Source: Bryobacteraceae bacterium (GTDB taxonomy: Bacteria; Acidobacteriota; Terriglobia; Bryobacterales; Bryobacteraceae). From it: DNA of 64,000 bases. This document shows positions 20,690 to 22,970 of this stretch, piece after piece. The stretch spans positions 4,179 to 68,178 of the forward strand of contig DATKNQ010000141.1 in the NCBI GenBank assembly GCA_035541265.1, written 5' to 3'. The notes beneath the pieces were generated by a model, which searched no databases, was not told the DNA's origin, and saw only the letters and a program-made list of their open reading frames with translations. Within the stretch, counting starts at the first letter, position 1, and the number at the start of each line of letters is the position of its first letter. The translations under genes were made by a program, and so were the position numbers.

Positions 20690-21730
20690 TCACACGGCCG
20701 CGGCGGTTTCCGCGACGCGCGCTTCCTTCCACAGATCGAGATACGGCTTAAGCTGGCGCATCATGGCGTGGAAATCTTTCAAAGTGAGCGACTGTGCGCC
20801 ATCGCTGATGGCCTTTTCAGGATTGGGATGGACTTCGACGATCAGGCCGTCGGCGCCGATGGCCACGCCCGCGCGCGCCAGGTCCGGCACCAGGCTGCGC
20901 TTGCCGGTGGCGTGGCTGGGATCGAGAATCACGGGCAGGTGGGTGAGCTCATTCAGCACCGGAACGGCGGCAATGTCGCAGGTGTTGCGGGTGGCGGTTT
21001 CGAAAGTGCGAATGCCGCGCTCGCAAAGCACCACGTTGGAATTGCCATGGGCCACGATGTATTCGGCGGACATGAGCAATTCCTTGATGGTGGAGCTCAT
21101 GCCGCGCTTCAGCAGCACGGGGCGCCCGCAGCCGCCCAGCGATTTCAGCAGCGCGAAGTTCTGCATGTTGCGCGCACCGACTTGCATGACATCGGTGTAT
21201 TCGGCCACCATGCCCACGTGGGCGTCGGTCATGACTTCGGTGACGATGGCGAGGCCGGTAGCTTCTTTGGCCTTGCGCAATAGTTTGAGGCCTTCGAGCT
21301 CCATGCCCTGGAAATCGTAGGGCGAGGTGCGCGGCTTGAACGCACCGCCGCGCAGCATGCGGGCGCCGGCCGCGGCCACGCCTTCGGCGGTCTCCATGAT
21401 CTGGCGCTCGGACTCGACCGAACACGGGCCGGCCATGACGATGAACTCGTCGCCGCCGATTTCAAGACCGTTGACGCGGATGATGCTGTGGTCGGGCTTG
21501 AACTCGCGGCTGACGAATTTGTACGGGGCCGAGATGCGCACGGCGCTTTCGACACCAGGGGTGGCTTCGAGAGATTCGAGGCAAGCGGTGACGTCGCCGA
21601 CGCCGACGACGCCGATGACGACCCGCTCTTCGCCTTCGATGGAGTGGACCTTGTATCCGAACTCCTGAATCCGTTCGCAGACGTGGTCGATTTGCTCGCG
21701 CGTGGCATGCGGACGCATCGAGATAATCAT
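20690..21730 (-). CDS. 3-deoxy-7-phosphoheptulonate (DAHP) synthase, class I-beta with an N-terminal ferredoxin-like regulatory domain
   Basis: ATG at 21730 preceded by [41 protein letters not shown] motifs. About 75-aa N-terminal ACT/FL-like domain as in Thermotoga-type enzymes. Confidence 0.9.
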
Positions 21731-21752
21731 GTGCCGATTCTCCTTCGCTCCG

Positions 21753-21785
21753 AAAATAAAAAACCCACTCTGACGAGTGGGTTGC
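21753..21785 (-). terminator. intrinsic terminator / attenuator hairpin 22 nt upstream of the DAHP synthase RBS
   Basis: Minus strand: (GC)AACCCACTC-GTCA-GAGTGGGTT followed by TTTTATTTT. 9-bp GC-rich stem plus U-tract. Confidence 0.7.
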
Positions 21786-21822
21786 AATTCACAAGAAGCT
21801 GGATGCCCTTCGCAACGCCACT

Positions 21823-21882
21823 CTACCGATTCCGGCGGAACCAGAATCGGAAGCTAAACGAGCTGGCGGAGTAGAAAGACAT
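21823..21882 (-). CDS. putative aromatic-rich leader peptide [19 protein letters not shown]
   Basis: 19-codon ORF, 7 of 19 residues Phe/Tyr/Trp. Its stop codon overlaps the antiterminator arm. No SD; a promoter-like -10 ends 11 nt upstream. Confidence 0.6.
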
Positions 21883-21893
21883 CGTAAAGGGCC

Positions 21894-21923
21894 AGTATAG
21901 GCGAAATCGCGGCGCTATGGCAA
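21894..21923 (-). promoter_or_regulatory. sigma70-like promoter candidate TTGCCA-18 nt-TATACT
   Basis: Hexamers read on the minus strand. The -35 lies 1 nt upstream of the stop codon of the upstream VWFA gene. Confidence 0.4.
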
Positions 21924-22970
21924 GCGCGCGGAAGCGTAATAGCTGTTGCGCGCCTCGACTGTGAGCTTGCCCTTCTTTGCCAGCTTGACCTTCAACTGGT
22001 GCAGATGGCCGTCCGGCTTGGCCGTTGAGACGAAGCTCAGCACATAGTGGCTTTCCGGAGTGGCGAGCCGATGAAAACTGGCGACGTAGTTGTTTCCCGT
22101 CAGATATGTGCCGCCGGTGCCTCGCGCCAGATCGGTAAGCACGATCGGATTCGTCGTCGATGACTCTGTGCGGGCGGCTTCCACCATGCCGGTTTGCTGG
22201 CCAGTGGGCTGTTCCGCTCCCCCGCTCACGGCAGGTTGACCGCCTTCGCCCAGGTCTAGGGAGTCGATCCGCACTTTCGAACGAATGGCCTCCTCAATCA
22301 ATTCCATTTCTTCCTGTCCCCGATCGAGCGCCACCTGGAACCCGGAGGAGACGAGTATGATCGACCGCTGCCCGGGCAGTCTGGACATGCCGCGGACAAT
22401 GTTCCTCAACAACGTTAGCTGAAGCGATTGGATTGTCGAGACGCGGCACACGCGCGGGGGATGCGCCTGCAGGCGCGCCACGGTGTCCTGCAACTTCGCG
22501 CGGTCGTTCGTGAAATCGAGCGCCAGAGTGCATGATGAGGTTAGCAAGGCTGCACGATCGCCCGGTTCGAGGCTGCTGAACTGCTGCGCGGCGGCCTCGC
22601 GCAGGCGCTTCAGATCGCCGAAGTTCCGGATGGCCACATCATCGAAGAAGTACGCAATAAACCGCTCGGGGATGTCCATGGCTGCGGCACCCGCGGATTT
22701 CTTCGCGGGCGCGTTGGGATCGGGCAGCGACCGGTCGGGCGCCACCTGGCCACCCGGTTTCTCCACCGAGAAATTCGCGATCTCGACCGGCTTGCCGTTA
22801 TCGAATAGCTTGAAGTCATCCTTGGCGAGGTCACCGACCACATGTCCGTCGTGATCGCGCACCACCACCGGTACCTGAATCATGGTCACACCCGACTGGA
22901 ACGTTTCGGCAGGCTCCTGTTGGGCAACCGCTGACAGCGGGATCAACAGGAACATAAGAAGTATACGCAT
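21915..22970 (-). CDS. VWFA-related acidobacterial-type domain protein (TIGR03436-like)
   Basis: Signal peptide then the characteristic TFQSGVTMIQVPVVVRDHDGHVVGDLAKDDFKLFDNGKPVEIANFSVE N-terminal module. Confidence 0.85.
   Translation of the reverse strand: MRILLMFLLIPLSAVAQQEPAETFQSGVTMIQVPVVVRDHDGHVVGDLAKDDFKLFDNGKPVEIANFSVEKPGGQVAPDRSLPDPNAPAKKSAGAAAMDIPERFIAYFFDDVAIRNFGDLKRLREAAAQQFSSLEPGDRAALLTSSCTLALDFTNDRAKLQDTVARLQAHPPRVCRVSTIQSLQLTLLRNIVRGMSRLPGQRSIILVSSGFQVALDRGQEEMELIEEAIRSKVRIDSLDLGEGGQPAVSGGAEQPTGQQTGMVEAARTESSTTNPIVLTDLARGTGGTYLTGNNYVASFHRLATPESHYVLSFVSTAKPDGHLHQLKVKLAKKGKLTVEARNSYYASARLP

Follow-up and report, generated by a model that had tools for sequence, protein, structure and literature searches.

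A probable leader-peptide attenuator upstream of the class I-beta DAHP synthase gene in Bryobacterales

Described attenuators of aromatic biosynthesis and a Bryobacteraceae leader

In the enterobacterial pheL-pheA and trpL-trpEDCBA systems (Rfam Phe_leader and Trp_leader), four segments of the leader RNA form alternative 1:2, 2:3 and 3:4 pairings that include an intrinsic terminator; the regulatory codons lie in or near segment 1, and the stop codon is placed such that a terminating ribosome covers segment 2. We found the same layout in a 64,000-nt stretch of a Bryobacteraceae genome (assembly GCA_035541265.1, contig DATKNQ010000141.1, positions 4,179 to 68,178; this whole stretch is called the window below, and its positions are counted from its first letter), on the minus strand and directly upstream of a gene for a class I-beta 3-deoxy-D-arabino-heptulosonate-7-phosphate (DAHP) synthase. 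The element combines the features by which leader-peptide attenuators are recognized, namely an open reading frame (ORF) with end-product codons, an intrinsic terminator, an antiterminator sharing a strand with it, a sequestering upstream segment, and a matching stop and stall geometry. We consider it very likely that it is a ribosome-mediated (leader-peptide) transcription attenuator of the class I-beta DAHP synthase operon in Bryobacterales. It departs from the enterobacterial systems in that their ORFs are led by a Shine-Dalgarno (SD) sequence, hold runs of codons for a single amino acid and precede terminal-branch genes, whereas here an ORF with no SD lies 7-12 nt from a -10 box, holds codons for three amino acids and precedes the first common step.

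Leaders with codons for several end-products are known from Escherichia coli, where the ilvGMEDA and thr leaders are multivalent and shortage of any of the amino acids relieves termination. The element resembles them in its multivalency, as judged here from codon content only, and differs in the amino acids sensed and in lineage, with no sequence relation. T-box and TRAP systems of Firmicutes, too, choose between terminator and antiterminator within the 5′ leaders of genes for aromatic biosynthesis, with direct sensing of uncharged tRNA or a Trp-activated protein and no need for a leader ORF; the element has no T-box match and is too short and simple for such an architecture. A cmscan of positions 21500-22200 on both strands against 4227 Rfam families returned neither a leader family nor the T-box family within an E value of 10, the only matches being at chance level with E of 2 or more (RNAI, mir-598 and a toxic small RNA), and membership in the T-box or another Rfam family was rejected on these grounds. 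Searched against Pfam and NCBIfam, five orthologous leader peptides (20-27 aa) matched no family, leader-peptide or other, with E of 10 or less.

An aromatic leader peptide in front of a DAHP synthase gene has a precedent in Corynebacterium glutamicum. Published accounts of aroR-aroF describe a leader peptide with aromatic codons upstream of DAHP synthase, with stalling under Phe limitation raising transcription (PMC11802643, first noted in PMC4046766), and the latter reports that translation of the ilvB leader peptide in the same organism proceeds with no ribosome-binding site (a finding of Morbach 2000, cited in PMC4046766). Compared by published description only, aroR-aroF and the present element both place a short aromatic leader peptide before a DAHP synthase operon; aroR, from Actinomycetota, contains F-Y-F without Trp, whereas the leaders studied here, from Acidobacteriota, carry (F/Y)-R-(F/Y)-W-(F/Y) with 5-9 aromatic residues and precede a class I-beta enzyme with a ferredoxin-like domain. 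The aroF product of C. glutamicum is another DAHP synthase subtype. The study behind the aroR-aroF attenuator is reportedly that of Neshat et al. from 2014. In E. coli and Shewanella, too, aroF has been suggested to be under attenuation control (PMC2659441).

In Acidobacteria, a 2010 survey found that predicted attenuators have almost no assigned functions (PMC2965389), and our literature search found no description of such an attenuator for this group, where an earlier in-silico mention may exist. A preliminary description of the locus, made from the window sequence, had known of no such case for this lineage or for a class I-beta DAHP synthase; the novelty is narrower than this implies, since aroR-aroF is a precedent for attenuating a DAHP synthase gene through a leader peptide. 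The element is thus a new, uncatalogued family of a known mechanism, leader-peptide attenuation of DAHP synthase having a precedent in another phylum, and what is new is the lineage, the enzyme class controlled, and a tri-aromatic core with a consistently SD-less, promoter-adjacent start.

Anatomy, distribution and conserved pairings of the element

The features of the element and its neighbourhood are collected in Table 1. The spacer from the upstream VWFA gene's stop codon to the ATG of DAHP synthase measures 184 nt, and 11 nt separate the end of the -10 box from the leader ATG. A check of the sequence found the leader ORF, its aromatic content, the F-R-F-W-F run, the stop overlap, region 3 and the terminator where the preliminary description had placed them. 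That description had set the T-run 22 nt before the ribosome-binding site; the distance is correct, but it runs from the end of the T-tract to the DAHP synthase ATG, and the SD begins 7 nt past the T-tract. Its inner hairpin, given as 10 bp, lies at the proposed position and comprises 11 bp by RNAfold; it may be a pause hairpin or part of the anti-antiterminator. Absent from it was a third conserved pairing, that of region 1 (CGCCAGCTC) with GAGTGGCG of region 2, which completes the classical 1:2 / 2:3 / 3:4 scheme. Extension helices such as that of the window fold recur in the minimum free energy (MFE) folds of many orthologues.

Table 1. Positions of the element and adjoining genes in the window
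Feature	Position	Strand	Remarks
Promoter-like site	21923-21894	-	-35 TTGCCA (21923-21918), 18-nt spacer, -10 TATACT (21899-21894)
Leader ORF	21882-21823	-	19 codons plus stop; 5 Phe, 1 Tyr, 1 Trp
Regulatory codons F11-R-F-W-F15 of leader ORF	21852-21838	-	
Leader stop codon TAG	21825-21823	-	final G common to GAGTGGCGTTGC
Region 1 (5′ strand of anti-antiterminator) CGCCAGCTC	21868-21860	-	leader codons 5-8; partner GAG-TGGCG of region 2
Inner hairpin CCGATTCTGGT-TCC-GCCGGAATCGG	21850-21826	-	11 bp by RNAfold; 5′ arm = R-F-W-F codons
Region 2 (antiterminator 5′ arm) GAGTGGCGTTGC	21823-21812	-	starts with last base of TAG stop
Region 3 GCAACCCACTC	21785-21775	-	common to antiterminator (with region 2) and terminator (with region 4)
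Intrinsic terminator	21783-21753	-	9-bp GC-rich stem AACCCACTC/GAGTGGGTT (21783-21762), loop GTCA, T-tract TTTTATTTT (21761-21753)
Extension helix GAAGGGCATC with GATGTCTTTC	21811-21802 with 21883-21874	-	window MFE fold; lengthens 5′ domain over start codon
DAHP synthase, class I-beta, N-terminal ferredoxin-like regulatory domain	21730-20690	-	SD AAGGAG 21745-21740
307-aa protein, N-terminal transmembrane segment, membrane-anchored	20679-19756	-	start 10 nt past DAHP synthase stop

A one-genome-per-species scan gave 80 orthologous loci with DAHP synthases 77-91% identical to that of the window, nearly all of them from metagenome-assembled genomes (MAGs) of Bryobacterales or other Terriglobia, and most carry the element upstream. 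We built a covariance model, R1, on 58 sequences and searched the window and the 80 loci with it (571 kb, both strands). It gave 60 strong matches (52-135 bits) to an element of about 135 nt in the 81 loci, all directly upstream of DAHP synthase on its coding strand and 2 of them outside the seed; elsewhere in the 571 kb, besides 4 weak remnants, R1 found nothing but antisense matches to the palindromic terminator. Metagenomes were scanned with a pattern of three RNA boxes only (GAGTGGCGTTGG ... CCCACTC ... GAGTGGG), derived from DAHP synthase-linked elements, in which the downstream gene was no search criterion. At least 120 matches were obtained; among the matches listed, 116 extended far enough downstream to be judged, each of these was followed by DAHP synthase and none by another gene, and nearly all had an aromatic-rich mini-ORF upstream. 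About 175 instances were collected in total, and the counts below refer to 170 of them for geometry and to 158 distinct sequences for folding.

The exclusive linkage to DAHP synthase bears on whether the unit could be an independent small gene, either a small RNA (sRNA) of about 130 nt or a functional 19-aa peptide (for example one acting in nascent-chain arrest or as a sensor), with DAHP synthase transcripts a mere by-product of read-through. The unit does have its own promoter-like site and a strong terminator, its peptide core with a nearly invariant Arg is conserved, and attenuated leader transcripts can act in trans in other bacteria. We nevertheless regard this explanation as quite improbable. 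The 22 nt between T-tract and DAHP synthase ATG leave no room for a separate promoter, and DAHP synthase must therefore be transcribed through the terminator; a conserved antiterminator competing with the terminator would be purposeless in a stand-alone sRNA gene, and outside its aromatic positions the peptide varies in sequence and length.

The pairings were assessed on a MAFFT alignment of whole elements (A1) and on a gapless codon-stacked subset (A2). In the 58 sequences the terminator helix 3:4 was paired in 98.1% of cells, compared with 25-55% for slid partners, with changes on both sides at 4 pairs, and its T-tract was conserved. The antiterminator helix 2:3 was paired in 90.9% of cells (slid partners 32-47%), and 6 of its pairs had changes on both sides. 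The anti-antiterminator helix 1:2 was paired in 85.7% of cells in A1 and 92.4% in A2, where RNAalifold predicted it de novo; on A1 RNAalifold recovered the terminator only, owing to the variable length of the 5′ domain. Across loci, region 2 hardly varies. Four loci (L010, L042, L015 and L023) combine GAGCGG in region 2 with CCCGCTC in region 3, and in two of the four the 3′ arm of the terminator keeps U, giving a G-U pair; region 2 is therefore tied specifically to region 3. The inner hairpin, whose 5′ arm is formed by the regulatory codons, is present in per-sequence folds of nearly all orthologues. These results indicate that terminator, antiterminator and anti-antiterminator are conserved and mutually exclusive. 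They agree with the competing antiterminator and terminator of the preliminary description, both of which show compensatory changes and share region 3, and the aromatic mini-ORF was conserved in the orthologue alignment as well.

Folding energies were compared for the alternative structures. The leader RNA of the window folds with -61.5 kcal/mol (z = -5.9 against dinucleotide shuffles), and its 2:3 duplex is stronger than its terminator duplex (-18.3 vs -14.2 kcal/mol). Across the 58 sequences the mean duplex energies were -11.1 for 1:2, -16.8 for 2:3 and -15.1 kcal/mol for 3:4; the 2:3 duplex reached -11.4 kcal/mol or stronger in 58 of 58, compared with a mean of -9.6 when region 2 was shuffled. 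The 5′ domains of the 158 distinct sequences had greater stability than their dinucleotide shuffles (mean z = -2.55), and in 91% of their MFE folds region 2 was sequestered by upstream sequence. We then folded nascent RNAs, that is, transcripts ending at region 3, with a ribosome placed at the Trp codon, at the stop codon or absent. The antiterminator formed in 127/158 sequences with the ribosome at the Trp codon, in 25/158 with the ribosome at the stop codon and in 55/158 with no ribosome. Only these nascent-transcript folds discriminate between ribosome positions, and full-length equilibrium folds do not reproduce the switching.

The leader ORF and the proposed mechanism

In 158 of 165 instances the leader ATG follows a TATACT-like -10 box at a distance of 7-12 nt (mode 9 nt), which bears out the promoter-like TTGCCA-18-TATACT sequence proposed for the window, and the alignment shows this ATG to be invariant or almost so. 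As also proposed, no SD precedes the leader: an SD-like tetramer stands before the ATG in only 7 of 170 instances. The leader transcript is probably leaderless, or has a 5′ untranslated region of at most 5 nt, because there is no SD. Independent evidence comes from about 16 close orthologues (DAHP synthases 84-90% identical) that lack the attenuator: here a promoter of the same type lies 6-9 nt ahead of the ATG of DAHP synthase itself, and in about a dozen of these loci it is of the GTGTATACT type with no SD in front of that ATG, which implies a leaderless DAHP synthase mRNA. ATGs at such spacing would accordingly serve as leaderless starts in this lineage. Leaderless genes have been predicted at 9.7-19.4% in three Acidobacteria genomes (PMC3160421).

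The leader peptides are 14-27 aa long and share the core (F/Y)-R-(F/Y)-W-(F/Y). Their mean aromatic fraction is 0.34-0.36 in frame (F 0.18, Y 0.09, W 0.07), compared with 0.087 and 0.052 in the other frames. At the codon before the core Arg (n = 142) all five aromatic codons interchange (TTT 61, TAC 32, TTC 13, TAT 10 and TGG 4), and near-miss non-aromatic T[T/A/G]N codons occur there once, compared with 8.7 expected. The Arg is itself nearly invariant (53/56, mostly CGA). A core of this kind could be more than a series of codons awaiting scarce tRNAs and point to a programmed arrest or sensor peptide, similar to TnaC and made from a leaderless mRNA, which would tune, or even sense directly, how available aromatic amino acids are; we think this rather improbable. 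If true, it would represent a mechanistically distinct class of attenuator, and the first functionally assigned one in Acidobacteriota.

The leader's stop codon begins 0-12 nt ahead of region 2 in 160 of 170 instances; in the remaining 10 the ORF reads through region 2 and stops 14-20 nt downstream of its start. The first base of the stop precedes region 2 by 2 nt in 100/170, giving the overlap seen in the window, and by 10-11 nt in 41/170; the family thus has three stop-codon layouts. Region 2 follows the Trp codon at a distance of 15-36 nt. Together with the nascent folds, this placement agrees with the earlier proposal that a ribosome at the stop codon would mask the antiterminator arm and one stalled at the aromatic codons would leave it free. 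Leaders of 24-27 aa ending in CRGASAKN or similar form a subgroup (L051, L058, L060, L066, L068, L071, L074 and L078) in which the ORF reads through region 2 and GAGGGGC takes the place of GAGTGGC.

From these features we infer a transcription start, translation of the ORF, ribosome stalling, premature termination and a response to aromatic amino acids that would be connected as follows. Transcription would begin just ahead of the leader ATG, within a few nucleotides of it, and the mRNA, SD-less and essentially leaderless, would be loaded by a ribosome. As long as Phe-, Trp- and Tyr-tRNAs carry their amino acids, this ribosome would reach the stop codon and mask region 2 (GAGTGGCGTTGC), upon which region 3 would pair with region 4, form the terminator and end transcription near position 21753. 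When an aromatic aminoacyl-tRNA is scarce, the ribosome would stall on the (F/Y)-R-(F/Y)-W-(F/Y) codons and open the 1:2 helix and the inner hairpin, while region 2, 15-36 nt downstream, would stay free to capture region 3 as it emerges; no terminator would form, and RNA polymerase would enter the DAHP synthase gene. Read-through would probably also reach the conserved 307-aa gene behind it. If the leader is not translated, region 1 and the inner hairpin would sequester region 2, and termination would be expected. With its mixture of Phe, Trp and Tyr codons the leader would act as a multivalent sensor, which would fit an enzyme that stands at the head of the common aromatic pathway and carries an allosteric domain.

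Several observations weigh against the attenuator interpretation. Changes on both sides of the 1:2 helix amount to 4 pairs and only 8 cells in A1 and to none in A2; they are scarce because region 2 is nearly invariant. The inner hairpin shifts its register, with 60% of cells paired in a fixed register. Full-length RNA favours the terminator in 134-157 of 158 sequences under all three ribosome states, so that the decision to read through must be kinetic and fall before region 4 is transcribed, as it does in classical attenuators. The nascent RNA of the window prefers the antiterminator at equilibrium when no ribosome is present, and termination without translation therefore depends on the 5′ domain folding first. 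Some leaders are weakly aromatic, for example MSYRFASSFTYRLSR with 4 aromatic residues in 15 and no Trp. The 170 instances are related sequences, and their counts are therefore not independent events. Finally, the columns of the ORF do not vary with a three-base period (permutation p ~0.7), and 141 of 158 sequences also have an open frame +1, so that the case for translation rests on the conserved ATG, the promoter spacing, the frame-specific aromatic codons and the placement of the stop codon.

The missing periodicity and the mostly open frame +1 speak for a translation-independent cis-regulatory RNA, in which the same terminator/antiterminator switch would respond to an RNA-binding protein, a tRNA or a small ligand and the mini-ORF would be incidental; moreover, much of the peptide conservation (YA(S/N)SF and the CGA codon for Arg) coincides with nucleotides constrained by pairing. 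We judge such an RNA unlikely. It leaves unexplained the invariant ATG at a fixed 7-12 nt from the -10 box, the four- to seven-fold frame-specific aromatic enrichment with its five interchanged codons and avoided near-misses, and a stop codon held within 0-12 nt of region 2 in 160/170 despite peptide lengths of 14-27 aa. The absence of any Rfam family, T-box included, at E up to 10 also argues against it, as does a 5′ domain that is a simple hairpin of variable register with no conserved ligand pocket.

A leader-peptide attenuator at this position would have several implications. Acidobacteriota are among the most abundant soil bacteria, and their gene regulation is almost unstudied; the element predicts transcriptional control of carbon entry into the aromatic pathway, atop the allosteric control exerted via the N-terminal domain of the enzyme. 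It indicates that attenuation can run from a leader ORF starting essentially at the 5′ end of the transcript, with a bearing on how transcription and translation are coupled on leaderless mRNAs. The element is also a candidate for a new Rfam family, and annotation would gain from it, the ORF of 14-27 codons being likely missed by gene callers.

Neighbouring genes and variant loci

The enzyme had been described as a class I-beta DAHP synthase with an N-terminal regulatory domain, and domain searches support this identification. It matches Pfam DAHP_synth_1 (PF00793, E 2e-81) and DAHP_snth_FXD (PF18152, E 1e-19), exceeds the cut-offs of NCBIfam TIGR01361 and NF006421, and aligns over residues 1-332 end to end with the Thermotoga maritima structures 1RZM/3PG9 (E 3e-106). 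The 307-aa protein encoded downstream has no Pfam or NCBIfam match. In 66 of 80 loci DAHP synthase is followed by its gene, which for this reason is probably the second gene of the operon, co-transcribed under the same attenuator.

The upstream neighbour is an acidobacterial VWFA gene (TIGR03436, E 1.5e-50). The -35 box TTGCCA abuts its TAG stop codon (TTGCCATAG, 21915-21923, minus strand), and the putative leader promoter is thus embedded in the 3′ end of the VWFA coding sequence. As the hairpin lies on the strand of the VWFA gene, 130 nt past its stop, the element might be an ordinary terminator of that gene accompanied by a chance mini-ORF, DAHP synthase being reached by leaky read-through. 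Counts within the window alone would allow this, as neither promoter-like sites (1 vs 0.6 expected from shuffles) nor terminator-like sites (2 vs 2.3 expected) exceed chance. We consider this explanation extremely improbable. The VWFA gene adjoins DAHP synthase in none of the other 80 loci, whereas the element is present in 60 of 81; since the upstream gene is not conserved, the element is not its terminator. ORF, region 2 and promoter are conserved together with the terminator, and where the element is absent a promoter fused directly to DAHP synthase replaces it. The element of the window is non-random because it is conserved across about 175 loci, not because of within-window counts. Within the 64 kb, both strands included, there is a single place where a -10 box is followed by an ATG 6-12 nt on, a short ORF and a terminator, and additional copies of the element in the window were considered and rejected after scans of the window.

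The loci without attenuator include L006, L007, L011, L014, L016, L017, L025, L026, L030, L044, L045, L046, L054, L056 and L059, the corresponding region being the ~130 nt that precede the start of DAHP synthase (e.g. L006:2870-3003). A conserved ATACACC-N8-10-GGTGGTG stands upstream of their promoter at about 65-75 nt, and it may be an operator for a different kind of regulation.

Four loci carry degenerate forms. At L005:2864-2976 and L022:2836-2982 the terminator hairpin comes right after the promoter, with neither leader ORF nor region 2 between them, and at L067:2884-2974 and L076:2884-2977 the terminator is kept and the mini-ORF is truncated or lost (21-33 bits with R1). These loci may represent constitutively attenuated copies, intermediates of evolution or artefacts of assembly.

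Four contigs (L043, L064, L025 and L074), which bear the labels Pseudomonadota, Singulisphaera or Candidatus Limnocylindrales, encode DAHP synthases 77-87% identical to those of Bryobacterales and are probably mis-binned MAG contigs; L043, L064 and L074 also carry the same leader.

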